This document shows, one piece after another, positions 2,275 through 62,480 of a stretch of 64,000 nt of DNA (the stretch's first letter is position 1; each line of letters starts with the position of its first letter). The stretch is from Anaeromyxobacter sp. (GTDB taxonomy: Bacteria > Myxococcota > Myxococcia > Myxococcales > Anaeromyxobacteraceae). A program made the position numbers and the translations under genes. The notes under the pieces are model-generated. The model did not search any database, had not been told where the DNA came from, and saw only the letters and a list, made by a program, of their open reading frames with translations. The stretch covers positions 64,001 to 128,000 of the forward strand of contig JASGJN010000020.1 of assembly GCA_049840735.1 (NCBI GenBank), read 5' to 3'.

Positions 2275-3498
2275 ATGGCGGCCCGCACCAGCCGGAAGAA
2301 GGCGCCCAGGACCCGGGCGGCGCGAGGGCGAGCGAAGGCCGCGCCTCCCCGGGCCGTGCTGGGCAATGACCCCTTCGCGCGCGGCGCGGCCCCTCGCGCG
2401 CCGGCCCAGCCGCCGACGCCCCCGCTCGAGCCCCATCCCCCTCCCCGGGCCCCTGCGCCGGAGCCGGCCGCCGGGACCGGGCAGGCTTACGCCCGCGGTT
2501 CGACGGGCTCACCGGGGACGGACGAGGCGCGGGAGCGGCTGGTGGAGGTCGAGCGCCGGGTGGACGCCGCGCTGGACGGGGTCGAGGGGCGCCTGATGGA
2601 GCTCGCGGAGCGGGCCGGGCTGCGCCAGGCCCGGGCCGAGCTGGGCGAGACGCTCTCCCGGCTCCTGCCGCAGCTGCAGGCCAGGCTGGGCGCGGCGCTC
2701 GATCTGCTCAAGATGGTGGAGCCGCCCAGCCGGCTCGACCGCCACGGCATGGACCCGCGGCTGGTGGAGCGGGCGCTGCCGCTGGTCGAGTTCCTGTGCT
2801 CCACCTGGTGGCGGCTCAGGATCCAGGGCCTGGAGCAGGTGCCGTCGCGCGGGCCGGCCCTGGTGGTGGCCAACCACGCCGGCCTGGTCCCATGGGACGC
2901 GCTGGTGCTCCGCCACGCGCTGCGCCGGGACCACCCCGCCCACCGCGAGCTGCGCCCGCTGCTGGACGACCGCGAGTGCGACCGGCCGCTGGTCGGCGGC
3001 CTGGCCATCCGGCTGGGCGCCGTGCGCGCCACGCCCGAGGCGGCGGAGCAGGTGCTGCGCGGCGGCGACGTGCTGGGCGTCTTCCCGGAGGGGAGCGCCG
3101 CGGCCCGAAAGCTCTGGCGCGACCGCTACCGCATCCAGCGCTTCGGCCGCGGCGGCTTCGTGAAGCTGGCGCTGCGCACCGGGGCCACCATCGTCCCCTG
3201 CGCGGTGGTGGGCAGCGAGGAGGCCTCGCCGGGCATCGCCCGCACCGGCTGGCTGGCCGAGCTGCTGGGGCTCCCGCTGCTCTCCGCCAGCCCCGCGCTC
3301 CGCTTCGGCCCGGCCGCGCTGCTGCCGCTGCCCTCGCGCTGGTCGCTCCGCTTCGGCGAGCCCTTCGAGACCCGCTCGCTGGGGCCGGCCGCGGCCGAGC
3401 ACCAGCCCACCGTCAACGCGCTGGCCGAGCGCGTGCGGGCCTCGCTGCAGGCCATGCTGGACGAGGACGTGGCGGCGCGAGGGAGCGTGTTCCTCTGA
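2275..3498 (+). CDS. Lysophospholipid/glycerol acyltransferase family protein with Pro-rich/coiled N-terminus
   Basis: VANHAGLVPWD (HX4-5D-like), VFPEG, FGRGGFVKLALRTGATIVP. Confidence 0.88.
   Translation: MAARTSRKKAPRTRAARGRAKAAPPRAVLGNDPFARGAAPRAPAQPPTPPLEPHPPPRAPAPEPAAGTGQAYARGSTGSPGTDEARERLVEVERRVDAALDGVEGRLMELAERAGLRQARAELGETLSRLLPQLQARLGAALDLLKMVEPPSRLDRHGMDPRLVERALPLVEFLCSTWWRLRIQGLEQVPSRGPALVVANHAGLVPWDALVLRHALRRDHPAHRELRPLLDDRECDRPLVGGLAIRLGAVRATPEAAEQVLRGGDVLGVFPEGSAAARKLWRDRYRIQRFGRGGFVKLALRTGATIVPCAVVGSEEASPGIARTGWLAELLGLPLLSASPALRFGPAALLPLPSRWSLRFGEPFETRSLGPAAAEHQPTVNALAERVRASLQAMLDEDVAARGSVFL
2493..2521. repeat. Short-form palindromic repeat, in-frame within acyltransferase
   Basis: ccgcGGTTCGACGGGCTCACCggggacgg closely matches the copy at 19469-19497 (cgtGGTTCGACAGGCTCACCgcgaacgg). 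Confidence 0.7.
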
Positions 3499-3525
3499 TT
3501 CTGGGGCACCGGCTCGGTACGGCCT

Positions 3526-3577
3526 GCCTTCGACTCCGGGGCCGCCGCTGGCGGCCCCTACGCTCAGGCTGACCGGA
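3526..3577. repeat. Long-form REP-like palindromic repeat between convergent genes
   Basis: gcCTTCGACTCCG-gggccgcc gct ggcggccc-CTACGCTCAGgc. Confidence 0.9.
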
Positions 3578-3608
3578 ACCGTTTGACTGCTGGCCCGGCC
3601 CGCTCCGA

Positions 3609-4514
3609 TCAGGCCGCCTCAGGCGCGGCCACCGCCACGCCGGACTCGCTGGCCGGCTTCGCCTCCGCCCGCGCCGTCCGCGGCTGCTTGTGCGCCATCC
3701 GCACGTGCTCGGGCGGCTTGCGCAGGTCGCGCACGATCCCCACCGCCGAGAGCGCGCGCAGCGCGTAGTAGCTGACGTCGATCTCCCACCAGAAGAAGCC
3801 CTGGTTGGCGCTGGCCGCGAAGTAGTGGTGGTTGTTGTGCCAGCCCTCGCCGAACGTGAGCAGCGCCAGCACCAGGCTGTTGCGCGACCCCTCGCCGGTC
3901 TCGTAGCGCTTGCGACCGATGACGTGGGCCAGCGAGTTGATCACGTAGGTGCAGTGCCAGAGCACCACCGTGGAGACGAAGTAGCCCCACAGCAGCGCCG
4001 CCCAGCCGCCCGCCAGGAAGAGGACCGCCCCAAGGGCGATCGGCGGCACCACGTGCCAGCGATCGAGCCACCGCAGCTCGGGGAAGCGGGCCAGGTCCTT
4101 CACGCGGTCGAGCTTGGTCTCCTCGTGGGCGCGGGACAGGAACCAGCCCATGTGGCTCCACAGGAAGCCGCGCTGGACGGGCGAGTGGATGTCCTGCGGG
4201 CGATCGGAGAAGCGGTGGTGATCCCGGTGGTGGGCCGCCCACCAGAGCGGGCCCTTCTGCGTGGCCGCGGTCCCCAGCACCGCCAGCACGAGCTGGAACG
4301 CGCGCGAGGTCTTGTAGGCGCGGTGGGAGAAGTAGCGGTGGTAGCCGGCGGTGATGCCGAAGAGCCGGAGCGCCCAGGTCGCCGCCGCGAGCCCCAAGAG
4401 GCCCCAGGTGCCGGGCACCAGGAACGGCGTGGCCAGCGCCACCACGTGGACCGCGATGAACGGGATGGAGGGGAGCCAGGCGATGCGGTCGGCGGCGGGG
4501 GCGGTCTTCGACAT
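3609..4514 (-). CDS. Acyl-CoA/acyl-lipid (delta-9-type) fatty acid desaturase
   Basis: His boxes HRYFSH, HRDHH, GEGWHNNHH. Confidence 0.93.
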   Translation of the reverse strand: MSKTAPAADRIAWLPSIPFIAVHVVALATPFLVPGTWGLLGLAAATWALRLFGITAGYHRYFSHRAYKTSRAFQLVLAVLGTAATQKGPLWWAAHHRDHHRFSDRPQDIHSPVQRGFLWSHMGWFLSRAHEETKLDRVKDLARFPELRWLDRWHVVPPIALGAVLFLAGGWAALLWGYFVSTVVLWHCTYVINSLAHVIGRKRYETGEGSRNSLVLALLTFGEGWHNNHHYFAASANQGFFWWEIDVSYYALRALSAVGIVRDLRKPPEHVRMAHKQPRTARAEAKPASESGVAVAAPEAA

Positions 4515-4735
4515 GGGCCGAGGAAGTGGTGGCCGGCTGTCATGGGCGGGTCACGGCCGGAGCGCTCGCCCGCCGGGCCCTGGCTCGACGCGCCCCTGCA
4601 GCTCCGCGCCCGCTGCGCGGGCGCCACGCTCAGGGCAGGCGGGGTCTGGGGTGCGGGCCCCGGGGGATGCACCGCGCCCTGGTGAGGCGCACCGTGTTTC
4701 CAGAGGGTCTGTGGGCTGGGGAAGGCGGGGGTGCG

Positions 4736-5140
4736 ATGCTCGAGACTGTCCAGGCGTCCGGTGGAGGAGCTGAGCCCCAGAAGGAGGCCTTCATCAGGCT
4801 CATGGCGGAGACGCTGCCGCTGGCTGGCTACTCCGGCGTTCGGGCGGATCTGCCGGGCTGGGATCAGCCGGAGGTGATCCACGGCGCGGTGCGGGATCAC
4901 CGGCCCAGCCTGTTCTGCGACGCGCCCAAGCCGGTCTTCCTGGACGTGCTCGCGCCCGGGCCCATCTCCATCGAGGACGTGGCCAGCCGCTGGCAGCTGT
5001 TCGCGTCGGCGGCGGAGCTCACCTCGGGCGAGTTCCACGTGGTGCTGCCGCGCTGGGTGGCAGGGCGCGACGGCCGCCAGGTGGCGAAGCAGATCGCGGA
5101 GCTGGTGGGGGTGAGGATCGGGTACATCTGGGCGGTGTGA
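4736..5140 (+). CDS. Hypothetical protein (~134 aa)
   Basis: Coding-like codon usage and globular composition (VRADLPGWDQP...SRWQLFASAA...FHVVLP). Confidence 0.7.
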   Translation: MLETVQASGGGAEPQKEAFIRLMAETLPLAGYSGVRADLPGWDQPEVIHGAVRDHRPSLFCDAPKPVFLDVLAPGPISIEDVASRWQLFASAAELTSGEFHVVLPRWVAGRDGRQVAKQIAELVGVRIGYIWAV

Positions 5141-5160
5141 GCGGCGAACGCGATCGCCGC

Positions 5161-6027
5161 TCAGTCCTCCTCTCCTGGCGGCGGCGGCCGCTGCTTCTTC
5201 CCCCTCCCCTCGTCCTCCTCGTCCGGCGGTGGCTCGTTGCCGTCCGGCCCCAGCGCGGCCTGCGCGGCCGCCATGCGCAGGAACGCGTGCAGCTGCGCCG
5301 GCGCCTCCTCCGGCGGCGGCTCGAGGCCGCGCTGGATCCAGCCCGGGTGGCTCGGCAGCAGCTTGCGGAGTGCGTCCAGGCTGACGTGGTCGGCGGCGCG
5401 GGTCAGGTCCGGCCCCTTCTGCCCGCCCACGCCGCGCACCTGGTGGCACCCCAGGCAGCGCCAGCCGAAGACGCCCGCCCCGATGCGCGCGCCGTCCGGC
5501 GCCGCCTCCGGGACGGTCAGCGCCCGCGAGACCACCCGCGCACCGTTGACCACCTCCAGCGCGGTCAGGTCGCGCGCCCACCACTGGATGGCGCGCGGGT
5601 CGGTGGCGATGCCGCGCTGCTCGCCGCTGGGCCAGGCCACCAGCCGCCCCTCCACCGGCGCCCCGTCGGCCCGCTCCGCCAGCACCGGCCGGTACTGCCG
5701 GACCAGGCTCAGCGGCACCGGGACGGCCCGCTTGTCTGCGGTCCGGAGCACCAGGATGTCGGCCCCTGGCCGCAGCTCCACCCGCGCCAGGATGGCCCCC
5801 AGGTCCACCCCTTCGTAGGCCGCGGCCCGCCCGGTGACCGGGTCCACGCCCTGCACCGTGCGATGCGGCAAGGCCTTCAGGTCGGCCTCGCCCAGCTGGA
5901 ACGGGCCGCCCTTCACGGCCCCCTTCACCTCCAGCTGCGGCGGACCGGAGGGGGTCTTCGGCAGGCGGGGCCCGCTGCCGCACGCGGCCAGGAGGAGGAT
6001 CAGCAGGGCGATGGGCGTTCTTGTCAT
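5161..6027 (-). CDS. Lipoprotein with C-terminal c-type cytochrome domain
   Basis: Lipobox LAAC; heme motif CLGCH followed by GPDLT. Start 6027 or 6033. Confidence 0.8.
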   Translation of the reverse strand: MTRTPIALLILLLAACGSGPRLPKTPSGPPQLEVKGAVKGGPFQLGEADLKALPHRTVQGVDPVTGRAAAYEGVDLGAILARVELRPGADILVLRTADKRAVPVPLSLVRQYRPVLAERADGAPVEGRLVAWPSGEQRGIATDPRAIQWWARDLTALEVVNGARVVSRALTVPEAAPDGARIGAGVFGWRCLGCHQVRGVGGQKGPDLTRAADHVSLDALRKLLPSHPGWIQRGLEPPPEEAPAQLHAFLRMAAAQAALGPDGNEPPPDEEDEGRGKKQRPPPPGEED

Positions 6028-6079
6028 GGGCACCTTCGGTTATCCTCGTGACCCGACCTCGACGATGGGAGCATCCTGC

Positions 6080-6296
6080 GTGGCGCGCGCCTTCATCGGA
6101 AGCAAGGAGTGCAGGGTCCAGGTCGATCGCGACCTGGGAGACACCTGGGCCATCGCAGTCTACCCGCCGCCGGACGGTGGGAAGCCCTCCGCCCCGCTGG
6201 TCGTGAAGCTCCAGGGTAACGACCGCGAGGCGGCCACGCGCGGCGCCCTGGAGAATCCTCCAGAAGGCGGGGCAGATCGACACGTTCGAGCCCTGA
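6080..6296 (+). CDS. Small hypothetical protein (~71 aa), apparent frameshift at ~6254
   Basis: MARAFIGSKECRVQVDRDLGDTWAIAVYPPP...RGALE[ILQKAGQIDTFEP*] after removing one A in GAATC 6253-6257. Confidence 0.65.
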
Positions 6297-6397
6297 CCTC
6301 GGCCGTCTGCCCACGCCGTGCCCCAGCGGCATGGCGCTCGATAGGGATGTCCCGCCGTGGTACACCGGCAGGCACACACCGTCGAGCCTGGAGCGTC

Positions 6398-11387: not shown

Positions 11388-11396
11388 CCTGCGACG

Positions 11397-13173: not shown

Positions 13174-13183
13174 GTGCCGCGTT

Positions 13184-15741: not shown

Positions 15742-15819
15742 GTGGGACCGGCCAATTTGCCGGGTGCCGCGGCGCTTGGCAAGCGGGGACTGAGGCAGTA
15801 CCGACCCGGACCCGCGGCG

Positions 15820-16341: not shown

Positions 16342-16369
16342 GCCGGCAGTCTACCGCAGCCCGGGCGGC

Positions 16370-17111: not shown

Positions 17112-19942
17112 TCAGCCCACCTGCGCCAGCGAGAGCCGCTCGGCCCATCGTTCGTGCAGCGCCTCGCGGGCCGCGGCGTGCTCGGCCTGGGCCAGCGCCG
17201 GGTCTGCCTCCACCAGCGCGAAGGCCTCCTCCCGCGCCTCCTCCAGGATGGCCTCGTCGCGGTAGAGGTCGGCCACGTCGAGCAGCTTCTGGCCGGACTG
17301 GCGCGTCCCCAGCAGCTCCCCGGGGCCGCGGATGGAGAGGTCCACCCGCGCCAGCTCGAAGCCGTCCTGCGTCTTCACCATGGCCTGCAGCCGCTCCCGG
17401 GCCTCGTCGCCGGCGCGCCGGAAGTGGGCGAGGAGCAGGCAGTGGCTCTGGGCGGCCCCGCGCCCCACCCGGCCGCGCAGCTGGTGCAGCTGCGAGAGGC
17501 CGAAGCGCTCGGCGTGCTCGACGATCATCACGCTGGCGTTGGGCACGTCCACGCCCACCTCGATGACCGTGGTGGCCACCAGGACCTTCAGCTCGCCGGC
17601 GCGGAAGCGGCCATCACCGCCTGCTTCTCGTCGGCCTTCATGCGGCCGTGCAGCAGCCCGACGGCGTGGCCCGCGAAGACGCGCGCCAGCTCCTCCGCGC
17701 CGGTGGTGGCGTCGGCCAGGTCGCTCTTCTCCGACTCCTCCACCAGCGGGTAGACCACGTAGACCTGGTGCCCCGCCTCCAGCTCGCGCCGGGCCAGGTC
17801 GTAGGCTCCCTTGCGCTGCGAGTCGCCGAAGAGCCTGGTGGTGACCGGCGTGCGGCCCGGGGGCAGCTCGTCGATCTTGGACTGGTCGAGATCGCCGTAG
17901 AAGGCCAGCGCCAGCGTGCGCGGGATGGGCGTGGCGGTCATGACCAGCACGTCCGGCCGGAGCCCCTTCTCGATCAGCCCGGCCCGCTGCATCACGCCGA
18001 AGCGGTGCTGCTCGTCCACCACCACCAGCCCCAGCTTCTGGAAGTCCACCCCCTCCACCAGCAGCGCGTGGGTGCCCACCGCGATGCGGGCGCGGCCGTC
18101 GGCCACCGCGGCGCGGGCCTCCTTCTGCCCCTTGCCCCGCGCCGAGGCGCCCACCAGCGCCACCTCGACGCCGGTCCCCTCCAGCCAGCGCGCCAGCGTG
18201 CGGGCGTGCTGCTCGGCCAGGATCTCGGTGGGCACCATCAGCGCGGCCTGCCAGCCGCTGTTCACGGCCAGCATCATGGCCGCGAAGGCCACCGCGGTCT
18301 TGCCGCTGCCCACGTCGCCCTGCAGCAGCCGGTTCATGGGCTCGGGCCGCCCCATGTCCTTGGCGATCTCGTCCAGCGTCCGGGCCTGGGCGCGGGTGAG
18401 CTGGAACGGGAGCCGCGCCACCGCCCGGGCGCGGGCCGCGGGCGTGGCCTCGAAGGCGATGCCGGGCGCGCCGCGCACGCCCCGCCGGCGCAGCGCCATG
18501 GCCAGCTGCAGGAAGAACAGCTCCTCGAAGATGAGCCGGCGGAAGCCCGGGGTGGCCCGCTCCGCGGCCGCCAGCAGGGCCGTGCCGGCGTCGGGGAAGT
18601 GGGCCTGGCGCAGCGCGTCGGCGCGCCCCAGCAGCCCGCGACGGGCCCGCAGCGCGGCCGGCAGGTCGTCCACCGCGGCCGGCAGGACCTCGTCCACCAG
18701 CCGCTTCATCAGCTTGCGCAGGGCCGGGTGCTGCGTGTCGGTGGGCCCGGCGTAGACCGGGACGATCCGGCCGAAGTTGGCCGAGTCACCGGCCTGCACC
18801 TTCTCCACCTCGGCGCCCGCCATCTGCCGCCGGGCGCCGAACCCCTCGGTCACCTTGCCAGAGGCGAGCAGCGAGTCCCCCGCGGCGAAGGCCTTGAGCC
18901 GCCAGGGCGGCGGGTTGAAGAAGACCAGCTCCAGCGCCGCGGCCTCGTCCTGGATGACCACCTTGAGGATGGGCCGGCCGTTGCGCATGCGCTGGATGCG
19001 GACGGTGCTCACCCGCCCCAAGACGCTGGCCTCCTCGCCGGTGGTGAGCTGCGAGATGCGCCGGACGCGGCTGCGGTCCTGGTAGGCCTTGGGCCAGAAC
19101 TCCAGCGCCGCCTCGACCGTGTCGCGGCCGCGCTCCTCCAGCTGGGCCCGCGGCGCCGGGTGGGCGCGCGGCAGCTCGGCCAGCTTCATGCGCAGCCGCT
19201 TGCGGCGCGAGGCCCGCTCCTGGGCGGTGCGCGGCTCGGGCAGCGGGTTCCAGGGCGCCTCCGCCACCGGCGGCGTGGGGTCGGGGTCGGGGGGCGGTCC
19301 GCTCTCGTGCTTCGACTCCGCGCGCCGGCCCGGGGCCGGCGCGCTACGCTCAGCACGAACGGACTCAGGCACCAGCGGCTTGCGGGGGGTGAGGGGGCGC
19401 GAGGCTCCGGCCGCGGGCTTCGCTCCTTCCGTCCGCCCTGAGCCTGTCGAAGGGCGAGCGGGTGCCTTTCGTGGTTCGACAGGCTCACCGCGAACGGGCT
19501 TCGCCTCCGTTCGTCCTGAGCGTAGCGAGCCCTCAGGGCTCGCGGAGTCGAAGGACGAAGGCCGAGTCGGCGCCGCTGTCTCCACCCTGCCCGCCCGCGC
19601 CAGCTCGCGCAGCTCCTCCGGCAGCGGGATGAGCGCGCCCAGGTCGCCGGCGATGCGGGCCAGGGCCTGGCGGCGCCCCTGCGGCGGCAGCGCGTCGAAC
19701 CCGGCGGCCTCGGTCTCCAGCCGGCGCAGCGCAGGCGAGTCGGCCGCGCCCAGGCCGCGGGCCCGGGCCACCGCGCCGCGGATGGTCTCGCCGAAGCCGG
19801 CCAGCCGGGCCGCGCCGGCGAAGCCGTCCTTCACGGCAAAGCGGAGCGGCGCCACCAGCGCCTCGAGGGCGCGGGCCGCCGAGAGGCCGGGGACCTCCCC
19901 GCCTGCCTCCCGCTTGTCGCTGGGCTCTCGTCCGCGCTCCAC
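17112..19942 (-). CDS. recG: ATP-dependent DNA helicase RecG with long N-terminal extension; apparent frameshift at ~17610
   Basis: LQGDVGSGKT, DEQHRFG, MTATPIPRT, then in a second frame ATTVIEVGVD, QLHQLRGRVGRG, RGPGELLGTRQSG. Confidence 0.95.
19305..19559. repeat. Array of four palindromic repeat copies in alternating orientation inside recG (19305-19363 long, 19428-19461 short, 19469-19497 short, 19506-19559 long)
   Basis: CTTCGACTCCG..CTACGCTCAG; CCCTGAGCCTGTCGAAGGG; GGTTCGACAGGCTCACC; CCTGAGCGTAG..CGGAGTCGAAGG. Confidence 0.92.
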
Positions 19943-19954
19943 GCGGCCAGGAGG

Positions 19955-24485: not shown

Positions 24486-25322
24486 ATGCTGACGCCCCTC
24501 GTCGTGGCGCTGATCCTGGCGGCCCCGCAGGCAGACCCTGCCGGGACGGAGGCCCCGGCGGCCCCCACCGCCGAGTCCGCTGCGGCGGCGCCCACCCCCG
24601 CGCCGCCCACCCCCGCGCCGGCCACCCACGAGGCGGCCACACCGGCTCCGGCGCCCGCCGCTGTCCCCCAGGCCCCTCCAACTCCGCCAGCCGCGACTCC
24701 TGCGACCCCCGCCGCCCACCCGGCCGCTGCCACGCCTTCCATGGCCACCCCGGCCCCCGCCGCCGCCGCTGCACCGACCCCGGCGCCGCCGGCCACCGCT
24801 CCGCCGCCGGCTCCGCCGACGGCTCCGGCCGCGGTCCCGCGGACCGCTCCGGTGCCGGCGGCCGCGACCATCCCCGCGCCCGGGGTCGCGCCCGCGCCGC
24901 CCGTCGCGCCGCCCACCGTCACCAGCGCCCCGGTCCCGCCCGGCGAGAAGGCCCAGGTGGCCGAGGCCGCCCTCGCCTTCCTCGACGCGCTGCTGGCCGG
25001 AGATGCCGCCGGGCTCTCATCGGCCTCGGCGGAGCGGTTCAGCTTCGACGGCGACGCCCGCACCGGCCGCCCGGACGTCCGCCGCGGCTTCGACGCGCTG
25101 GTGGTGCGCCGCGCCGGGCTGCCCCGGGCGACCCTGCTCGACCTGGAGGTGCTGCCGGTGGCCGACGCGGCGGCGCGCCTCGGAGCACCGCCCCCGCGCC
25201 TGGCCCCGCTGGCCGCGACGCGCGGCGCGTGGGTGGCCATCGCCGACGTCTCCGGCCGGCCGGTGGTGCTGTTCCTCGTGCGCGAGGGCCCGCGCTGGCT
25301 GGTGGCCGGGCTGCACGGGTAG
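24486..25322 (+). CDS. Secreted Pro/Ala/Thr-rich hypothetical protein
   Basis: Signal-peptide-like N-terminus, long low-complexity linker, C-terminal ~120-aa domain. Confidence 0.75.
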   Translation: MLTPLVVALILAAPQADPAGTEAPAAPTAESAAAAPTPAPPTPAPATHEAATPAPAPAAVPQAPPTPPAATPATPAAHPAAATPSMATPAPAAAAAPTPAPPATAPPPAPPTAPAAVPRTAPVPAAATIPAPGVAPAPPVAPPTVTSAPVPPGEKAQVAEAALAFLDALLAGDAAGLSSASAERFSFDGDARTGRPDVRRGFDALVVRRAGLPRATLLDLEVLPVADAAARLGAPPPRLAPLAATRGAWVAIADVSGRPVVLFLVREGPRWLVAGLHG

Positions 25323-25356: not shown

Positions 25357-25406
25357 CCGCTCGTCCTGAGCGTAGCGCCCGCGCAGCGGGCGCGGAGTCG
25401 AAGGAC
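25357..25406. repeat. Long-form REP-like repeat between convergent genes
   Basis: ccgctcgtcCTGAGCGTAG-cgcccgc gca gcgggcg-CGGAGTCGAAGgac. Confidence 0.9.
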
Positions 25407-25428
25407 AGGCCGCTGAGCCCGGCGCCGC

Positions 25429-29783: not shown

Positions 29784-29908
29784 TCCGCTTGAACCTCCGA
29801 GCAGGGCATTCTACGCCATGGAGGCTGGTTTCGAGCAGGGGGCAGCCGCGCGCCCCTCGCCCGGCGGGCACCACCCCCGGCGCTCGCCCCGGCGGCCTTG
29901 CCCTGTCC

Positions 29909-30844
29909 ATGGATCCAACCCTTCAAATCGCCACCGCGCGCGACGGAACCCGGCTGGCGTGGACCAGCACCGGGGCCGGCGGTCCTCCGGTGATGCTGGT
30001 GGACGGCATCGGGTGCGCCGGCTACGTCTGGCGCCACCTCCGCCCGGCGCTGTCGGACCACCGGCGGGTGATCCACTGGAACTACCGCGGCCACGGCCAC
30101 AGCGAGGCCCCCCGGGATCGCGACCGCGTCACGGTGGACGACTGCGTGGACGACCTCTTCGCGGTGCTGGATGCGGCCGGGGAGCAGGAGGCCCTGCTGG
30201 CCGGCCACTCCATGGGCGTGCAGATCGCCCTGGAGGCCCACCGCCGGGCGCCCAGCCGGGTGAAGGGGCTGGTGCTCCTCTGCGGCGCCCCCGGCCACCC
30301 CATCGACACCTTCCGCGACTCCGGGCTGCTCCGGGCCGCCTTCCCCTTCGCGCGCGCCGCCGTGGAGCGCTGGCCGGACCTGGCCCGCAACCTGATCCGG
30401 GCGGTGGTGCCGACCGAGGTGGCGCTCGAGCTGGCGCTCACCTTCGAGGTGGACCGGACCCGCGTGGCGCGCGAGGACCTGGCCCGCTACCTGGACGACC
30501 TCTCGCGCGTGGACCCGGTGCTGTTCACGCGCCTGCTCCACTCGGCCGGCGAGCACGACACCACCGACCACCTGCCGGAGGTGGACGTGCCCACGCTGGT
30601 GGTGGCCGGCGAGCGCGACACCTTCACGCCCATGCGCCTGTCGGTGGCCATGCACCAGGCCATCGCCGGGAGCGAGCTGCTGGTGCTGCCCGGCGGCACC
30701 CACGTCGGCCCGCTGGAGCACCCCGCGCGCGTGGCCGAGCGGGTGCTGGCCTTCCTCGCCCGGCACGCCGACGCTCCCAGACCGCCTCGACGGCCGGCCC
30801 CGCTGCGGGCCGCGCGCCGGGGGAGAAGGGCCGGACCTCGATGA
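29909..30844 (+). CDS. Alpha/beta fold hydrolase
   Basis: WNYRGHGHS, AGHSMG, GERDTFTP, GGTH. Confidence 0.9.
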   Translation: MDPTLQIATARDGTRLAWTSTGAGGPPVMLVDGIGCAGYVWRHLRPALSDHRRVIHWNYRGHGHSEAPRDRDRVTVDDCVDDLFAVLDAAGEQEALLAGHSMGVQIALEAHRRAPSRVKGLVLLCGAPGHPIDTFRDSGLLRAAFPFARAAVERWPDLARNLIRAVVPTEVALELALTFEVDRTRVAREDLARYLDDLSRVDPVLFTRLLHSAGEHDTTDHLPEVDVPTLVVAGERDTFTPMRLSVAMHQAIAGSELLVLPGGTHVGPLEHPARVAERVLAFLARHADAPRPPRRPAPLRAARRGRRAGPR

Positions 30845-33800
30845 AGCGCCTCCTCGCCGCGATCACCCTCCTGGCTGCCCTCCCCGCCTCCGCCCAGCTC
30901 TACAATCCCGGCTTCCGCTGGCGCACCATCGAGACGGTGCACTTCCGCGTCCACTACCACCAGGGCGAGGAGACCTTGGCGGCGGAGGTCGCGGCCGCGG
31001 CCGAGCGCGCCCACCTGGCCCTGACGCCGGTGCTCGGCTACGCGCCGCGCCCGCGCACCGAGCTGGTGCTCTCGGACGACACCGACGACGCCAACGGCTC
31101 GGCCACGCCGGTGCCCTACAACATCATCCGGCTCTACGCGGTGCCGCCGGACGGCATGTCCGAGCTGGCCAGCTACCGGGACTGGGTGACGGCGCTGGTC
31201 TTCCACGAGTACGTCCACATCCTCCACCTCGACAACGTGGGCGGCGTGCCGGACCTCGCCAACCACGTCTTCGGCAAGCTCTTCGTCCCGAACGGCCTGG
31301 TGCCGGGGTGGATCGCCGAGGGGCTGGCGGTGGCGCACGAGGCCGACGGCGACCCCGGCGTCCGCTCGGGGCGCAACCAGAGCGCCATGCAGGAGATGTA
31401 CGCCCGGGCGTTGACGGTGGAGGCGCCCGGCTTCCCGCGGCTGGACGAGATCTCGAACCCGCTCACCGAGTGGCCGCTGGGGAACGTGCCCTACCTGATG
31501 GGCGGCCGCTTCATGGCCTGGCTGGAGGCGCGCTACGGCCAGAAGCAGCTGGCCTGGTTCCTCCGCGACCAGGGCTCGCGCATCTGGCCGTACGCGCCCA
31601 GCTGGTCGGGCGAGTCCGCCTTCGGGCAGGACTTCCAGGCGCTCTGGAAGCAGTTCCGCGCCGGAGAGGAGGCCCACTTCGCCGCGCAGCTCCAGGAGGT
31701 GCGCCGCCGGCCCGTCACCGCCTACCAGCGCCTCACCTTCGACGGCGGCCGCGCGGTGACGCCGCGCTGGGCGCCGGACGGCGCGTCCATCGTGTACCGC
31801 CGCGGCAGCCTGGACGAGCGCTCCGGGCTGCGCCGGATCTCGCCGGAGGGCAAGGCGCTCGGCGACGAGGTGCCGGTGGACGCCAACGGCAACCTGACCC
31901 TGACCTCCGGCGATGAGGCCGTGGTGGCCATCGCCGACGTGTGGCACGAGCACCGGCTCTACGACGACCTGTGGCGCGTGACGCTCCGGAACGGCCGCCG
32001 CACGCGGCTCACCGACGGCGGGCGCGCCACCGATCCGGCCTTCGACCCGGCCAGCGGGCTCCTGGCCTTCGTCAAGCGGACCGGCCCCGGCGAGATGGCG
32101 CTGGTCCGGCGCCCCCTGGCCGGCGGCGCCGAGGCGGTGGCGCTGGCCCGCCCCGGCGCGCAGGTCTTCGCTCCCGCCCTGGCGCCCGGCGGCCGGCGGC
32201 TGGCCGTGGAGCTGCACGAGGGCGGCCGGCGTGACGTGGTGGTGCTGGACGGCGGGCGCGAGGTGCGCGTCACCGAAGACGCCGCGCTCGACCTCTCGCC
32301 CTCCTTCACGCCGGACGGCAAGTGGCTCGTCTTCTCGTCCAATCGGAGCGGGATCTTCAACGTGTACGCCTGGCCGGTGGAGGCGTGCCTGGCGGAGGCG
32401 GTTGCAAGCGAGGCGCCGGCAGCCACGACCGAGGCGGAGCCGGCGGCGGCTGAGGAGACGCCGGCACAGGCTGAGGAGACGCCCGCACAGAATGAGGAGA
32501 CGCCCGCACGGGATGAGGCTGGGCCGGCTCCCGCCGAATCCGTTCGCCCTGAGCGTAGCGAGCCCGAAGGGCTCGCGGAGTCGAAGGGCGAGGAGCGAAC
32601 GGAGCCGAAGCGCGAGCCCTGCGCCCTCCGTCAGGTCACCAACGTCGAGACCGGCGCCTTCCAGCCCTCCGTCTCGCCCGACGGCCGCACCCTGCTAATC
32701 GTCTCCTACTCGCGGGCCGGCTACGACCTGGCCACCCTGCCCTTCAATCCCACCGCCTTCCTCGAGCCGGCCGCCCCGCTGCGCGAGACCGTGGCCCTGC
32801 CTGCGGCGGTGACCGCCCCGGTCGCGCCGCCGCCGTCCAGGCCCTACTCCGCCTGGTCCACCCTCGCGCCCACCTGGTGGTTCCCGGTGTGGGGCACCGA
32901 CGCCGGCGGCAACCTGTACGGCGCGGCCACGGGTGGCATGGACGTGCTGGCGCGCCACGCCTGGGCGGCGCAGGCCTGGTGGAGCGTGGAGGCCAAGCAG
33001 CTCAGCTACAACTTCGCCTACCAGGGCGGCTGGTCCTGGCCGACCTTCGATCTCTCCTCGTACCGCTACCTCGACACCGCGCCGGGCGGCCCCGAGGAGC
33101 TGCAGGCCATCTGGACCCCGGCCGACGTCGGCGCGACCTTCACCTTCACGCACCTCGACTCGAGCTTCGCCTTCCGCCCGGGCTGGCGCGGCACCATCCA
33201 CGACGTGCTCGGCACCGACGCCAAGGCCACCACCTCCGAGGAGATCGGGCTGGGCGACGGCTTCCTCTCCGAGCTGACGCTGGGGGCCGCCTGGTCCAAC
33301 GCGCGGCGCTACGTGCGGTCCATCTCCGCCGAGGAGGGCACCAGCGCGGCGGTGTTCGGCCGGCTGGCCCTGCCGGAGCTGGGCAGCGACGTGAAGCTGG
33401 CCCGGGTCGAGGGGGCGCTCTCGCAGTACCTGCGCATCCCCTACACGCGCCACGGCGTGCTGGCGCTCCGGGCCGCCGGGGGCGCCGCGGACGGCTCGCT
33501 GGGCTTCCACCGCCCGTTCACGCTGGGTGGCGTCAGCTCGCCGGACCTGGTCTCGGTCCTGCTCCTGCAGCCGTCCATCGGCGCCAACGAGCTGCGCGGC
33601 TACCCCAGCAGCTGGCTGGGCGGCACCGGCTACGCGCTGGCCAACGCCGAGCTCCGCTTCCCCATCGCCGTCCCGGAGCGCGGCTACTCCACCTGGCCCA
33701 TCTTCCTGCGCCGGGTCCACGGCGCCGTGTTCGGCGACCTGGGCGACTGCTTCGACCTGCCCGGCGAGCTCGCCTTCGCCGGCCACTCGTTCTCGACCGA

Positions 33801-33978
33801 CCAGCTCAGGCTCGGCGCCGGCGGCGAGCTGCGGCTGGAGGTGGCGGTCGGCTACTACGCCGTCTTCGACGTACGGCTCGGGCTCGCGCACGCCTTCGGG
33901 CGCGTCTTCGCCGGCGAGGCCAGCGAGCCCGGGGTGGACCCGGTCACCGGCTACTTCACGGTGGGACAGAGCTTCTAG
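30841..33978 (+). CDS. Outer-membrane protein: N-terminal zincin-like domain, TolB/PD40-like propeller, C-terminal Omp85(BamA/TamA)-like barrel
   Basis: Signal peptide; HEYVH...WIAEG; repeats PRWAPDG/PSFTPDG/PSVSPDG; ELRGY, NAELRFP, terminal GQSF. Confidence 0.85.
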   Translation: MKRLLAAITLLAALPASAQLYNPGFRWRTIETVHFRVHYHQGEETLAAEVAAAAERAHLALTPVLGYAPRPRTELVLSDDTDDANGSATPVPYNIIRLYAVPPDGMSELASYRDWVTALVFHEYVHILHLDNVGGVPDLANHVFGKLFVPNGLVPGWIAEGLAVAHEADGDPGVRSGRNQSAMQEMYARALTVEAPGFPRLDEISNPLTEWPLGNVPYLMGGRFMAWLEARYGQKQLAWFLRDQGSRIWPYAPSWSGESAFGQDFQALWKQFRAGEEAHFAAQLQEVRRRPVTAYQRLTFDGGRAVTPRWAPDGASIVYRRGSLDERSGLRRISPEGKALGDEVPVDANGNLTLTSGDEAVVAIADVWHEHRLYDDLWRVTLRNGRRTRLTDGGRATDPAFDPASGLLAFVKRTGPGEMALVRRPLAGGAEAVALARPGAQVFAPALAPGGRRLAVELHEGGRRDVVVLDGGREVRVTEDAALDLSPSFTPDGKWLVFSSNRSGIFNVYAWPVEACLAEAVASEAPAATTEAEPAAAEETPAQAEETPAQNEETPARDEAGPAPAESVRPERSEPEGLAESKGEERTEPKREPCALRQVTNVETGAFQPSVSPDGRTLLIVSYSRAGYDLATLPFNPTAFLEPAAPLRETVALPAAVTAPVAPPPSRPYSAWSTLAPTWWFPVWGTDAGGNLYGAATGGMDVLARHAWAAQAWWSVEAKQLSYNFAYQGGWSWPTFDLSSYRYLDTAPGGPEELQAIWTPADVGATFTFTHLDSSFAFRPGWRGTIHDVLGTDAKATTSEEIGLGDGFLSELTLGAAWSNARRYVRSISAEEGTSAAVFGRLALPELGSDVKLARVEGALSQYLRIPYTRHGVLALRAAGGAADGSLGFHRPFTLGGVSSPDLVSVLLLQPSIGANELRGYPSSWLGGTGYALANAELRFPIAVPERGYSTWPIFLRRVHGAVFGDLGDCFDLPGELAFAGHSFSTDQLRLGAGGELRLEVAVGYYAVFDVRLGLAHAFGRVFAGEASEPGVDPVTGYFTVGQSF
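32449..32511 (+). repeat. Three 21-bp tandem repeats encoding (A/N)EETPA(Q/R)
   Basis: gctgaggagacgccggcacag / gctgaggagacgcccgcacag / aatgaggagacgcccgcacgg. Confidence 0.9.
32539..32603. repeat. Long-form repeat in-frame within the outer-membrane protein gene
   Basis: tccgttcgccCTGAGCGTAG-cgagccc gaa gggctcg-CGGAGTCGAAGggcga...cgaacgga. Confidence 0.92.
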
Positions 33979-41922: not shown

Positions 41923-41936
41923 GCCGATCGACGCCT

Positions 41937-41990
41937 GGCCTTCGACTCCGGGCCCGCCTCAGGGCGGGCCCTACGCTCAGGCCGAACGGA
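41937..41990. repeat. Long-form REP-like repeat between convergent genes
   Basis: ggcCTTCGACTCCG-ggcccgcc tcag ggcgggcc-CTACGCTCAGgccgaacgga. Confidence 0.9.
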
Positions 41991-45664: not shown

Positions 45665-47266
<1,602 letters not shown>

Positions 47267-50818: not shown

Positions 50819-50996
50819 GTGCTCGCTCCCGTCCCTCGCGCTCAGCCCCGGACGGTACCGCAGGGGGCACCCCCGTGGTCCCGACCATACCGGAGGGTGA
50901 ATTGTAGAATCCGGCCCTCATGCCGTCCATCCGCTTCCTCGGCGCGCCCGCTGAGAGCCCGGCCGCCGCGCGCCGTCCGGCGTACCTGGGGGTCCC

Positions 50997-56698: not shown

Positions 56699-58822
56699 GC
56701 GCGCGACCCCTCGGGCAGCGCGTAGGCGCCGGCCGACTGCTGCAGGCTGTCGGACAGCTCGTGGGCCCGGGTGGACAGCTCGCCCAGCAGCCGCGCGCCG
56801 TCGCGGATGGACTCGGAGGCCTTCTGCATGGAGCCGAGCGCCTGCGAGACCTGGCTCACGCCGGCCTGGTGCTGGCGGGCCGAGCCCTCCACCTGGCGCA
56901 TGAGCCCGACCGCCTCGGTGACGGTCACGCCCAGCTGGGCCACCACCTCGCCCAGCCGCTGCACCAGCATGGCGCCCTCGGAGACGGTGCGCCCGCCGGC
57001 CTCCACCGAGCCGTCCACCTCGCCGGTGCGCTGCCGGATCTCGCCCAGCAGGTCGCGGATCTCCGCCGCCGCCTTGCGCGAGTCGGCCGCCAGGGCGCGG
57101 AATCTCGCGCGCCACCACCGCGAACCCCTTGCCCGCCTCGCCGGCCCGCGCCGCCTCGATGGCGGCGTTGATGGCCAGGGTGGAGGACTGGTCGGCCAGG
57201 AAGGAGACGGTCTCGGTGATGTCGTCGATGCGGCGCACGCGCTCGGCCAGCGCCGACGAGGCCTGGGCCACGCGGTCCAGCGAGCCGGAGATGGCGCTCA
57301 TGGCGCCCGCCGCCGCGTGGGTGGCCGCGCTCCCCTCCTCCACCACCGCCGTGGCCGCCTCGCCCTGGCGGATCAGCTCGCTGGCGCGGTCGGCCGAGAC
57401 CGCCGAGGTCTGGGCCATCTCGGTCATGGTGTTGGCGGTCTCGGTCACCGCCGCCACCTGCTCGGTGGTGGCGGTGCTGAGCTGCGCCGAGGCCGACTGC
57501 AGGTTCACCACGATGTCGGCCACCGAGCCGGCCACGCCCTGCGTCCGGCCCACCATGGTGCGGAGGTTCCCGGTCATGCGCTGCAGCGCCTGCCCCAGCG
57601 CGCCCGGCAGCTCGGCGTCCTTGCGCAGGTCGCCGCCGGCGATGGTGCGCGCCTGGTCGGCCACGCCCTGCAGCGCCGCCTGCAGCTGCTCGAAGGCCGC
57701 GCCCAGGTCGCCCTGGATGCGCGACGCGTCCACCACCTCGCCGCGGGCCATGGCCGCCATGCGGCGCGACAGCTCCAGCATGGCCTGGCGCGAGGCCCGG
57801 AACGGCTGCAGCAGCCCGCTCTCGCCCTGCAGCTCGCGGGTCAGCTCGCCGGCCGCGATGGCGCGCAGCTGCTCGAAGGCGTGGCCCAGCTCGCGCGCGA
57901 TGGCGGCGGTGGCCACGGCCAGGTCGCCGGTCTCGTCGCTGGCCACCCAGCGCGGCACCGAGGGCGTCCCGGCCACCGTCGCGCGCAGGGCCGCCTGGAC
58001 CTCGGCGGCGGCGCGGGCCTGGCGGCGGGCCAGCAGCGTCCCGGCCAGCCCGAAGGCCACCATGATCACCAGCGAGATGGCCAGCAGCGGCCAGGCGATC
58101 TGCTGGTTGATGTGGAGCAGCTGCAGCTGGACGAACCCGGCGGCGGACGACATCCCCTCCTCGGAGAGGGCCGCCAGGATGTCCGCCACCGCCGTCTGGT
58201 AGCGGGCGTAGAGCACCGCGCCGGTGAACCCCAGCATGGTGACCACCGCCACCGCGAAGGCGTAGGGCAGGAACCAGCCCTGGCGCAGCCAGAGGAGGCC
58301 GCGCCGGCCGACGGGCGGCTGCGGGTCGCGCAGGTACTCGGCCAGCGCCAGCGGGCGCACCTCCTCCTCGACCAGCAGCGTCTGCAGCAGCCCGGGGAAG
58401 AGCGAGGCCAGCAGGCCGATGGCGGGGCTGACGATCAGCAGCCCGGTGGGCCGCTCGAAGAGGACCACGCACCCGATCGCGAACACCTCGCCGCCGAGCA
58501 TCCAGGCCGGCGCGCCGGAGAGCAGCTCGATGCGCCGCGGCAGCTCCAGCAGCCGCACCAGGCGCCGCCCGGCGGCCTCGCCCGGGTGCTGCGCGAGCGC
58601 GGCCCGGAGCAGGCTGCGCGAGACCAGGAACTGGAAGGCGGCGGTCACGGCCAGCACCAGGGCCAGCAGCCCCAGCCCCTGCCACAGGTCGGCGCGCTTC
58701 AGCCCCACCACCAGCGTGAAGACCACCGCCGCCACCACGGCGCCCGGCACGGAGGTGACCAGGATGCGGTTGAAGATGCGCTGGTGCGCCCGGCCGGCGT
58801 CGAGGGACGGTTCGGGCGTCAT
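56695..58822 (-). CDS. Methyl-accepting chemotaxis protein; apparent frameshift at ~57102
   Basis: [32 protein letters not shown][IRALAADS]; continues in the 56695-57018 frame. Confidence 0.92.
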
Positions 58823-59202
58823 GCGGTCTGCTCCGGCGTCGCGCCCAGGTGGCGCCGGATGGCGTCCTGCAGCGGCTGCGGCTGGATGGGCTTGTGCAGC
58901 ACCTCGCGGGCGCCGGCGGCGCGGATGCGGCGCACCAGGGTCTCGTCGCGGCTGGAGGTCAGGATCAGCACCGGCACCTTGCGCAGCGCCGCGTCGGCGG
59001 AGAGCGCCTCGCAGAGGCCGATGCCGTCGAGGTTGGGCATGCGCAGGTCGGCGAGGACCAGATCGGGCGGCGCGGCGCGGATCTTCTCCAGCGCGTCGGC
59101 GCCGTCGGCAGCGTCGTCCAGCTCGACGTCGCGGGCGATGAGATAGACCTTGATGAGCTCCCGGCTCACGCGGCTGTCGTCCACCACCAGGATGCGCGTC
59201 AT
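58819..59202 (-). CDS. Single-domain response regulator (CheY-like)
   Basis: ILVVDDS, ADLRMP, LTS, HKP. Confidence 0.92.
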
Positions 59203-59224
59203 GGAGCTCTCGTCCTTTCGAAGA

Positions 59225-59695
59225 TCAGTCCGGAAGCGCGGCGAGGCTGCGGAGCAGCGCCGGCACGTCCAGCACGGCCAGGGGTCGATCGGTGCCGGAC
59301 CAGCCGGCCACCAGGTCCGGCGAGGGCTGGTCCTCGCCCAGCGGCGCGTGGGCCACCAGGTCCTCGGCGGCGTCCACCCAGAGCAGGCCCCGCAGGCCGC
59401 GGGCGCCGAGCTCGACCAGCTGGTGGTGCGGCGAGAGCGTCACCTCGCGCTCGCCCGCCAGCGCGGCGGCGAAGGCCACCGGCAGGAGCGCGCCGCGCAC
59501 GCCGATGAGCGGCGCGACGGGGGCGGTGGCGGGGCGCGCCGCAGGCAGCGCGGCGGGGTGGACACGCTGGACGTGGCGGAGCGGCACCAGCAGGCGCCAG
59601 GCGCCGGCGCGGACCACCATCAGCTCTTCACCCGCCGTCAAGGGGTCGGCGGAGGTGGTCAGGGGTGCGGCAGCGGGCGGTAGGGCAGGATCCAC
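59225..59695 (-). CDS. cheW: CheW-like protein (divergent)
   Basis: IGVRGALLPV, LWVD, VLDVPALL; start uncertain. Confidence 0.75.
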   Translation of the reverse strand: MDPALPPAAAPLTTSADPLTAGEELMVVRAGAWRLLVPLRHVQRVHPAALPAARPATAPVAPLIGVRGALLPVAFAAALAGEREVTLSPHHQLVELGARGLRGLLWVDAAEDLVAHAPLGEDQPSPDLVAGWSGTDRPLAVLDVPALLRSLAALPD

Positions 59696-59858
59696 GCCCG
59701 ATCCTGCCGTGAAAACTTCGTACCATTTCTCCCCTGCACCGTCCCGCGGGTGCGGGACGAACGCAGCGCGTCCAAGTCCGCGATCCGTGGGGCACCGCCC
59801 CTGTGCGGTCCTGCCGCGGCGCCGGTCACCTCACATGTCACCGAGGGTCACGTTACCG

Positions 59859-59892
59859 TGGGTCAACGCTACCCGGGCGCAACGCTGACCCA
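59859..59892 (-). terminator. RNA hairpin just downstream of pheA
   Basis: 14-bp stem that pairs fully only on the minus strand (3 G-U pairs); no U-tract. Confidence 0.45.
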
Positions 59893-59912
59893 TGCCCAGC
59901 GTGCGGATTTCC

Positions 59913-60747
59913 CTAGGACGGGCTGCCGCACCGCGGGTACGACCCGAGCCGGTGGAGCGCGTGCACCCGCTCCCCCACCGCCACCAGCGCCGCGGCCCCG
60001 GCCTGGTCGTCCTGGTGCCCCTCGAAGTCGAGGAAGAAGACGTAGTGCCCCAGGGCCTCCTTGGTCGGGCGGCTCTCGATCTTGGACAGGTTGATGCCGC
60101 GCCGGGAGAACTCGCCCAGCACCTCGGCCAGGCCGCCCGGGCGGTCCCGGTCCAGCGTGAAGGCGATGCTGGTCCGGTCGGCGCCGGTCGGCGGCTCGGC
60201 CCCGGCCGCCACCAGCACGAAGCGGGTCACGTTCTCGCCGGCGTCCTGGATGTCCTCGGCCAGCACCTCCAGCCCGTACCGCGCCGCGGCCGCGCGCGAG
60301 CCGATGGAGGCCACGCCCGGCCCGCCCGCCGCCACCGTCCGCGCCGCGTCGGCGGTGGAGTGGGTGGCCTCCAGCGTGGCGCCGGGGAGCCGGGTGCGCA
60401 GGAAGCGGGCGCACTGGCCCAGCGGCTGCGGGTGCGAGAGGACGCGCCGCACGTCCTCCAGGCGCGTGCCCGGCGGCGCCAGCAGGTGCTGGCGCACGGG
60501 CAGCAGCAGCTCGCGCCGGATGCGCAGGCCGGGGCGGTGGACCAGCAGGTCGAGCACGGCGCCCACGCTCCCCTCGATGGAGTTCTCGATGGGGAGCAGC
60601 GCCGCCTCGACGGCGCCGCCCAGCGCCGCCTCGTAGGCGTCGGCGAAGGTGGAGTACGGGACCGGTGCGTCGCTGGCCGCGAGAATCGCAGCGCGAGACG
60701 GCCTCCTCGCTGAAGGTGCCGGGCGGCCCCAGGTAACCGATGCGCAT
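59913..60747 (-). CDS. pheA: Prephenate dehydratase; apparent frameshift at ~60685
   Basis: IGYLGPPGTFSEEA, PIENSIEG, SHPQPLGQC, NVTRF, LSKIESRP. Confidence 0.95.
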
Positions 60748-60821
60748 GGTCCCGGGGATTTACCACGCCGACGGGCGGAAGGCTGCCGCGGCATGGCGCG
60801 CCGCGCCGCCGCGGCCGCACC

Positions 60822-61208
60822 TCAGGGGGCGAGGCCGGGGCGACCGCGCTCCGCGGCGTCCGCTACCGCGCGCAGCAGCTCGCGCAGGCCGAACGGCTTG
60901 AAGAGGACGGCGTCCGGCTTCAGCAGGCGCGTCACGTGCGGCGTCTGGATGCCGGTGGTGACCACCACGCGGATGCGCGCCAGCGCAGGGTCGGCGCGGA
61001 GCGTGTTGAGCAGCGACGCGCCGTCGAGCCCGGGCATCATCAGGTCGAGCACCAGCACATCGGGCGGGTCGGCCCGCAGGCGGGCCAGCCCCTCCTCGCC
61101 GTCGGCGGCCACCTGGACCTGGTAGCCCTCCGCGGACAGCACGTCCGCCACGACGTCCCGCTGGACGTCGTTGTCGTCGACAACCAACACCCTGGCGGGC
61201 CCGTTCAC
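60822..61208 (-). CDS. Single-domain response regulator (in frame with upstream HAD gene as sequenced)
   Basis: VLVVDDN, LDLMMP, FKPF; own TACATT 7 nt upstream of GTG. Confidence 0.85.
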   Translation of the reverse strand: MNGPARVLVVDDNDVQRDVVADVLSAEGYQVQVAADGEEGLARLRADPPDVLVLDLMMPGLDGASLLNTLRADPALARIRVVVTTGIQTPHVTRLLKPDAVLFKPFGLRELLRAVADAAERGRPGLAP

Positions 61209-61276
61209 GGCCGGGAATGTAGGGCGAGAGCCCGGCACGCGGGAGGGCAGGCGCTGACTCTCTTGGGATGGGTCCC

Positions 61277-61919
61277 TTAGCGCGGCGAGCAGCGCGGGGA
61301 GGTCCTCGATCCGCTCCAGGACGTGATCCGGGCCGGCGCCGAGCAGCACCGCGCGCTCGCAGGCCCCCCAGGGCGCGGCGACGGTGGCGACGCCGGCGGC
61401 CCGCGCTGCCTCGAGATCGTGCACCGCGTCCCCTACCATGATCGCGTCGGCGGCCGGGACGCCGAGCCGCTCGAGCGCCAGCAGGACCGGCTCGGGATCT
61501 GGCTTGGAGCGGGCGCAGGAGTCGGCGCCGATCACCACCCGCAGGTGCGGCAGCAGGCCGGTGAAGCGGAGCGTCCGGAACGCGCCCTGCTCGGTCTTGG
61601 CCGTGACCACTCCCAGCGGGTGGCCGGCGGCGGCCAGCGAGGCCACGGTCTCGAGCGCGCCGGGGAAGCAGCGGGTCATCCGGTCGTGCTCCGCCAGCCA
61701 GAACTGGCGATAACGGTCCACAAGCCCGTCCACCTCGTGCGCCGGCACCAGGCGGGCAATCTGCTCGCGCAGCGGCGTCCCCACGCCGGCCAGCCACTCG
61801 GCCTCGGTCGGGCCGCGCGGATGTCCCTCGAACGCATGGCGCACCGCAGCGAGGATGAAGGGGATGGTGTCGACGAGCGTGCCGTCGAGATCGAAGAGGA
61901 CCGCCGTGTTCACGGGCAC
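61277..61919 (-). CDS. HAD hydrolase (PpaX/phosphoglycolate phosphatase-like); 3' end uncertain
   Basis: FDLDGTL, VVTAK, KPDP, VGDAVHD. Confidence 0.88.
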
Positions 61920-61980
61920 CCCACGATCATAGTGCAAAAACGCCCTCGCTTCGCCATCGGCGCGTGGCTAGCTTCGGGAG

Positions 61981-62364
61981 GTGACGGGCGCAGCGATCAT
62001 CCGGCGGGAAGCCCAGGGGACGACCGTCCTGGCCGTGCACGGCGCCTTCGACGGCTGCGCCGCCTGGGCGCTGCGCCTGGAGATGGACGCCTGCGGCCCG
62101 GGCGACTTCGTGGTCGACCTGACGCAGGCCGACGAAGCCTGCGAGTTCGCCGCCTGCCTGCTCGCGAGCTACGCGCAGGGCTGCCGCCGGGAGCGGCGCA
62201 TCCGCTTCGTCCCCGGCGCGCCCGACCAGGCGCGGCTGCTGGCGGCGTTCAACCTGGAGTGCGTGCGTGAGCCTCCACCGCTCCACGCGGCCGCGGCCGC
62301 CCGCAACGAGCCGGCCGGTCCGAGGCACGCGCCCGCCTCGCCCCGCCGGACCGGGGTGGCCTGA
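61981..62364 (+). CDS. STAS-like domain protein
   Basis: VLAVHGAFD, VVDLTQ, ARLLAAFNL pattern. Confidence 0.65.
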   Translation: MTGAAIIRREAQGTTVLAVHGAFDGCAAWALRLEMDACGPGDFVVDLTQADEACEFAACLLASYAQGCRRERRIRFVPGAPDQARLLAAFNLECVREPPPLHAAAAARNEPAGPRHAPASPRRTGVA

Positions 62365-62373
62365 GCCAGCCCT

Positions 62374-62480
62374 GGGCTTCGACTCCGCGAGCCCTGTGGG
62401 CTCGCTACGCTCAGCCCGAACGGATCCAACCGTTCGTCCTGGGCGTAGCCGCCGCACAGCGGCGGCGGAGTCGAAGGACG
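62374..62480. repeat. Inverted doublet of long-form repeat (62374-62424 and 62430-62480)
   Basis: gggCTTCGACTCCG-cgagccc tgt gggctcg-CTACGCTCAGcccgaacgga then ccgttcgtcCTGGGCGTAG-ccgccgc aca gcggcgg-CGGAGTCGAAGgacg. Confidence 0.92.

Follow-up and report, generated by a model that had tools for sequence, protein, structure and literature searches.

What spreads a structured hairpin repeat through a bacterial genome, and how copies of it come to be read inside proteins, is the question raised by a stretch of Anaeromyxobacter sp. DNA that carries eleven such copies. The window, by which the whole analysed stretch of 64,000 nucleotides is meant, is C20:64001-128000 of genome G000 (6.67 Mb, 74% GC). 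The hairpins are probably recognition sites, in single-stranded DNA (ssDNA), of a small putative nuclease of the GIY-YIG type, encoded on another contig, which probably also drives their spread.

All eleven copies listed in a preliminary description of this DNA were recovered in place, eight in a long and three in a short form. Read 5' to 3', the long form consists of the tag CCGTTCG, a variable stem of 3-4 bp, TGAGCGTAG, a GC hairpin, CGGAGTCGAA and the stem complement. In the short form the middle is replaced by a loop of 3-4 nt, and the 5' tag, the stem and the GAG...TCGA core are retained. A structure of 14 pairs was scored over the eight long copies of the window: 111 of 112 cells were paired (99.1%) and 22 cells had changed on both sides. 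None of 500 shuffles equalled the observed values and slid controls paired at 32-46%, which bears out the covarying stems of the preliminary description. DNA folding gave z of about -3.8 for two long copies and -1.1, which is not exceptional, for one short copy. The invariant core can, we infer, be drawn with tandem G-A pairs.

The whole genome was searched with regular expressions, which gave 618 hits (548 long and 70 short); 32 failed the stem filter, leaving about 586 copies in 399 clusters. The exact long-form pattern matched 349 times in the genome and its reversed control 0 times; the exact pattern was also found in 16 of 24 same-genus genomes and, outside the genus, in 2 of 16 from the order (reversed controls, 0-1). 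Among 518 long copies there were 452 distinct sequences and 100 different inner stems, with core positions conserved at 87-100% each, as expected of the dispersed, structured, non-autonomous element, constant in its core and variable in its inner hairpin, that had been proposed. As many as 297 copies are singletons at unrelated sites. In head-to-head pairs the spacer measured 9-11 nt in 42 of 71 cases and was free in sequence, and spacers of 10-13 nt dominated among the dimers of G004, G006 and G010. Tandem arrays and tag duplications were common; the largest array (G000:C19:65976-67755) holds 17 alternating copies with a tandem unit of 217 bp. Gaps between convergent genes held 178 of the 364 non-internal clusters, as against 794 of 5847 gene pairs (crude gene calls). 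In gaps between co-oriented genes the copy lay on the same strand in 67 cases and on the opposite strand in 55, with no preference.

A mobiliser of either RAYT/HUH or GIY-YIG type, flanked by copies and situated outside the window, had been envisaged, and a GIY-YIG gene of this description was found. Three GIY-YIG and six Y1_Tnp matches are present in G000. One GIY-YIG gene, at G000:C21:263786-264061 (locus L001), encodes a 92-residue GIY-YIG domain (PF01541, E 3.8e-19) and is framed by 14 copies between -638 and +941 of the match, one of the three largest copy groupings in the genome; no copy occurred within 5 kb of the other two. The best PDB hits of the nuclease were UPF0213 proteins, and an NCBIfam search assigned no family to it. 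Tyr, Arg, His and Glu positions are conserved among its homologues, and we take them to be those expected of a GIY-YIG active site.

Homologues were collected from 80 GTDB loci (Burkholderiales, Sphingomonadales, Dehalococcoidia, Actinomycetota, Latescibacterota and others), and a search for them on viral contigs returned 0 loci. L090, a duplicate of L001, and L003, a UvrC-like protein that failed the profile, were dropped. Short or long forms that match exactly stand beside 44 of the 80 GTDB loci, 12 of 14 close loci of relatives and 0 of 15 distant housekeeping paralogue loci. Many loci missed by the exact forms carry C-G in place of T-A as the core-closing pair, which at nuclease loci varies from T-A (209) to C-G (73). 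Short-form loops next to nuclease genes are chiefly CCTG, CTTG and CGAAG. A motif based on the structure lay within 500 bp of 84 of 92 homologues, a partly circular count; for the controls the figures were 1 of 16 among housekeeping UPF0213-like and 3 of 84 among Ssn-type genes (described below). The motif stood on both sides of the gene in 57 of the 92, inverted with tags outward in 45 of these. A stricter sequence motif was found at 63 of 95 nuclease homologues, 0 of 16 housekeeping UPF0213-like and 2 of 84 Ssn-type genes. L015, L039 and L041, whose proteins are identical to those of L093, L100 and L101, were left out of the structure-based count and of the identity comparison given below. 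By this co-occurrence the hairpin family is tied to the UPF0213-like GIY-YIG branch across phyla; that the nuclease recognises, cuts and mobilises the hairpins is what we infer from the association.

In 12 of the 13 loci from the genus, the neighbour of the nuclease gene is the same MoxR-type ATPase gene (upstream of DUF58). The junction was retrieved from nine genomes that are devoid of the gene: it measured 15-40 bp in six, consisted of a repeat pair alone in one (G023) and held other inserts in two. The nuclease gene behaves like one in single copy that is inherited vertically and at times lost, a behaviour shared with RAYTs. Nuclease copies off the usual MoxR/DUF58 site were seen at L102 (G020) and at G009:C4:479999; L102 is flanked by the C-G closing-pair variant, suggesting a separate acquisition. 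A repeat-like peptide occurs at the C-terminus of 43 of 92 homologues. At the Sphingomonadales loci L030:1992-3068, L034, L044, L048 and L052 the nuclease frame passes the downstream hairpin into a SpoU-family methyltransferase, and the resulting frame of ~360 amino acids (Pfam-checked for L030) is a possible repeat-bridged gene fusion.

The closest known arrangement is the Ssn/SRM system, in which a GIY-YIG protein of 94 amino acids, SsnA, cleaves ssDNA on the upstream side of a directional hairpin (Chenal et al. 2025, PMC11893778; CDD cd10448). Both systems join a single-domain GIY-YIG gene of ~90 amino acids to directional hairpins with an unpaired 5' tag on both of its flanks, and both have hundreds of copies per genome, rarely intragenic (2% for NTS repeats, PMC11893778; at most 6.5% for the present family). 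The Ssn/SRM hairpin is a plain stem-loop, whereas hairpins of the G000 family combine an invariant internal core, GAG/TCGA, with an inner hairpin that can be exchanged. As stand-ins for SsnA/cd10448, Ssn-type proxies (n=84) were gathered beside NTS matches and then expanded. In a quick tree of 93 columns, which carried a warning of long branches meeting, the proxies split off with an SH-aLRT of 100 and the partner nucleases grouped with housekeeping UPF0213-like proteins; the mean identity of the partner nucleases was 37% to the proxies and 43% to the housekeeping proteins. Similarity to one Ssn-type proxy reached E 2.5e-14, and a loose cut-off would still include the partner nuclease. The published SRM pattern flanked 0 of 95 partner genes versus 58 of 84 Ssn-type genes and had only 55 matches in the whole G000 genome; two Anaeromyxobacter rows of the published table record no SRM enrichment (PMC11893778). 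Membership in Ssn/SRM (cd10448) was rejected, the partner nucleases lying outside the proxy clade in the quick tree and the SRM motif not flanking them.

Repetitive extragenic palindromes (REPs), with their REPINs, BIMEs and RAYT REPtrons, offer a second likeness: a single-copy, vertically kept enzyme gene framed by repeats, palindromes in high copy and mostly extragenic, spaced inverted dimers, tandem arrays, a bias to convergent gaps and no target-site duplication (in the G000 family, none found). The enzyme of the G000 family is a GIY-YIG protein and not an HUH Y1 transposase, and its hairpins bear no GTAG at their ends. An unpaired 5' tag and head-to-head heterodimers are also features of the CGTC-tagged repeats and Rickettsia palindromic elements described by Di Nocera et al. 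(2013, PMC3733652). These too have no link to a tyrosine transposase and at times lie in frame within genes, DNA-repair genes among them (in G000, recG). The CGTC families have stems of 8-9 bp and loops of 4-5 nt, whereas the G000 family is marked by its CCGTTCG tag and GAG/TCGA core; the main text of that article names neither Anaeromyxobacter nor Myxococcales (PMC3733652). The hairpin/nuclease system resembles both Ssn/SRM and REP/RAYT, though its GIY-YIG branch and its hairpin are different ones. A literature search, with most subscription journals outside its reach, found no description of the hairpin or of a repeat-linked UPF0213 branch.

The positions of the window copies and of the genes that host them are listed in Table 1. 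Six of the eleven are read in frame (four in the recG linker, one in a PD40/Omp85 loop and one in an acyltransferase linker) and the other five are intergenic.

Table 1. Hairpin copies in the window and their host genes (window coordinates)
Feature	Position	Strand	Setting
Acyltransferase host gene	about 2275-3498	+	Pro-rich N-terminal linker holds copy at 2493
Short copy, degenerate 5' tag	about 2493-2521	-	read in frame, opposite strand, in Pro-rich N-terminal linker of acyltransferase gene
Long copy	3524-3576	-	intergenic; convergent acyltransferase and fatty-acid desaturase genes on either side
recG host gene	17588-19942	-	hypervariable linker (N-terminal extension to wedge domain) holds 4 copies
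Long copy	19306-19362	-	in frame, recG linker
Short copy	19429-19456	+	in frame, recG linker
Short copy	19470-19497	-	in frame, recG linker; head-to-head with copy 19507-19557, spacer 9 nt
Long copy	19507-19557	+	in frame, recG linker
Long copy	25357-25407	+	intergenic; between + strand gene ending near 25322 and convergent aminotransferase gene
PD40/Omp85 protein open reading frame	29818-33978		hosts long copy 32540-32590
Long copy	32540-32590	+	in frame; insertion of ~80 amino acids in beta-propeller loop of PD40/Omp85 protein
Long copy	41936-41989	-	intergenic; convergent glutamate dehydrogenase and membrane-protein genes
Long copy	62373-62423	-	left half of intergenic head-to-head dimer, spacer 6 nt
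Long copy	62430-62480	+	right half of dimer; upstream of response-regulator gene

The 5' tag of the copy at 41936-41989 has three extra 16-bp tandem duplications, from 41989 to about 42037, and tag expansions of this kind are also present in G014.

The in-frame share of the window is a local excess, unrepresentative of the genome, because it comes mainly from the one four-copy cluster in recG. Coding was tested with a codon model trained on G000, a copy being called internal if a coding signal lay on both sides in one open frame. By this measure no more than 38 of the 586 copies, in 32 of the 399 clusters, are internal and in frame, compared with 511 of 800 random positions, and about ten of the 32 clusters look like false calls when read by eye. 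A further 162 copies lie in open frames with a coding signal on one side only, many of them probably upstream of the true start. The proportion of over half in frame given in the preliminary description therefore holds for the window and not for the genome, and the addition of peptide to core proteins is not supported as a defining trait. A single reading frame accounts for 19 of the 38 internal copies. Single genes with two separate in-frame copies were seen at G000:C13:783100 and 783574, and at C17:155465 and 155882.

Orthologues of the three host genes mostly lack the copies. In 18 genomes with both anchors, the recG linker region measures 64-174 amino acids and its middle is unalignable; copies occur there in G021, G012 and G019 at differing places and strands, G023 has a decayed copy, and most genomes have none. 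PD40/Omp85 orthologues mostly have a short loop at the insertion site; G015 has four short copies there and G010 a decayed one. In a subset of these orthologues (L176, L180, L195, L179 and L188) the short loop is bounded by cysteines, and the repeat insertions of G000, G015 and G010 all lie between the two cysteines. The motif was not found in the acyltransferase linker of the 13 other orthologues in which the anchors were located. The in-frame copies are recurrent insertions into permissive loops, and the predicted peptides are likely to be neutral passengers, tolerated in flexible linkers. Repeats of the GTAG, CGTC and Rickettsia types are known to insert in this way (PMC3733652); the last had rightly been cited as a precedent, and the in-frame peptides are an already known side effect of such repeats. 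The recG gene also has a frameshift near 17,600 (window 17588-17620), 1.7 kb from the repeats, beyond which the C-terminal part of the helicase continues in another frame; it is either an assembly error or the mark of a pseudogene. The DUF58 gene, which lies downstream of the nuclease (L001:2635), also shifts frame at its start, hinting at indel errors in the assembly.

The preliminary description took the repeats for GTAG-type REPs mobilised by a RAYT/TnpA(REP) HUH enzyme. GTAG does precede the palindrome in the long form, there are the six Y1_Tnp matches in G000, and the dimers and arrays resemble REPINs and BIMEs. This reading is already largely refuted and keeps next to no probability: GTAG sits internally in the long form and is missing from the short forms, which have CCTG, CTTG or CGAAG instead, and no copy lies within 5 kb of five of the six Y1_Tnp matches, the remaining one having a single copy 3.5 kb off. 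With 0 of 6 matches flanked by copies, a RAYT partner was rejected (Y1 genes were searched for in G000). The hairpins might instead act as RNA, terminating transcription or stabilising mRNA, or selection might favour a function of the encoded peptides. The enrichment between convergent genes, the single frame that accounts for half of the internal copies and the repeated striking of the same loops in different genomes would suit such roles. CTTG and CCTG loops fold in DNA as two-base loops. The inner loops of the 518 long copies were C-GNA-G in 217 cases, GNRA in 6 and UNCG in 0; GCGNAGC mini-hairpins are exceptionally stable as DNA, and their GNRA-loop counterparts far weaker as RNA (PMC13037366). 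These DNA-type loops speak for a DNA element and against an RNA one. Between co-oriented genes the copies show no strand preference, as noted above. Rfam 15 gave only a tRNA in the window and nothing at E<=1 at the nuclease locus L001, leaving the hairpin without a match there, and in-frame copies vary in place, strand and number among orthologues, from most of which they are absent. A role in RNA or peptide as the main explanation is accordingly very improbable; a secondary RNA role is possible.

A further alternative accepts that the nuclease recognises the hairpins but holds that it does not spread them. It would be a domesticated host enzyme that limits incoming ssDNA or processes stalled forks, much as transformation is modulated by SsnA, and slippage and recombination would multiply the repeats. 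What has been demonstrated for SsnA is cutting and an effect on transformation, not transposition (PMC11893778); the nearly constant MoxR-type neighbour of the nuclease gene, the common tandem arrays and tag duplications, and the failure to find a target-site duplication agree with this alternative. It is nevertheless unlikely, in view of the hundreds of isolated copies at unrelated sites, the fixed dimer spacing and the higher copy number where the nuclease gene is present. For the last point, broad-pattern matches per genome within the genus had a median of 304 with the nuclease (n=12) and of 98 where it was not found (n=11), the genomes being kin and not independent samples. Turnover was followed in 400-kb samples of G006 (nuclease present) and G014 (not found), the flanks of which are about 95% identical; clusters with no orthologous site (13 and 5) were excluded. 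The sites of G006 clusters were empty in G014 in 14 of 26 cases, partial in 5 and shared in 7, about three of the 14 empty calls being doubtful on reading. In the reverse direction, 1 of 14 was empty, 3 were partial and 10 shared. Orthologous empty sites, which the preliminary description had proposed to look for, are thus present.

Spread of the hairpins by the nuclease has its own difficulties. Beyond the kinship of the genomes and the doubtful empty calls just given, some genomes in which the nuclease was not found are rich in broad-pattern matches (G023, 263; G005, 250), and the motif behind the count of 84 in 92 was defined after the same loci had been viewed. No stop codon follows the domain in the G000 nuclease frame, which extends for 345 amino acids into the repeat array (L001:1492 onward); this may impair the enzyme or be an assembly error. 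The GIY-YIG domain is not known to have strand-transfer activity. Neither a target-site duplication nor a sharp insertion boundary was found at singletons, dimers or the empty sites of G006 and G014: 297 singletons and 21 dimers gave no duplication signal, and the flanks of dimers shared words at 4.9 versus 4.8 when shuffled. Since neither was found, the family does not qualify as a miniature inverted-repeat transposable element, which is defined by terminal inverted repeats and a target-site duplication.

If the nuclease does drive the spread, the steps would be as follows. The hairpin core would fold in ssDNA with its tandem G-A pairs, and the nuclease would bind the folded core and then, in the manner of SsnA at NTS, nick at a fixed distance on the 5' side of the tag. 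New hairpin copies would arise through repair or recombination at the nicks, in many cases as head-to-head pairs with a spacing of 9-11 nt. Copies would persist where they are harmless, between genes and occasionally in frame in variable linkers, the latter because the core has a stop in just one of the six reading frames (TGA-GCG-TAG).

How REP-like repeats spread where there is no RAYT is an open question, and the hairpin family points to an enzyme and a substrate, outside the Ssn clade, that can be tested as a pair. A bolder proposal, which we put forward tentatively and hold to be somewhat less probable than not, is that the uncharacterised UPF0213-like branch is a second, independent lineage of tiny GIY-YIG proteins with a cross-phylum selfish-repeat system of its own. 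Its nuclease would read the shape of folded ssDNA (a tandem G-A core, stems free to vary and an added hairpin whose sequence does not matter), nick beside it, seed REPIN-like dimers with no HUH transposase and repeatedly write peptide into the same flexible loops. If true, this would provide a structure-guided ssDNA nuclease of 92 residues and a transposase-free route for the spread of REPs. The natural variants (T-A or C-G closing pair, loops of 2-5 nt, inserted hairpins) map the recognition rules, and pairs of relatives with and without the nuclease gene exist, with several phyla covered. If site-specific cutting of ssDNA holds true, the known GIY-YIG branches that do so would be doubled and a very small ssDNA tool added. 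For these bacteria, the hairpin family explains the recurrent low-complexity peptide inserts that confuse their annotation.

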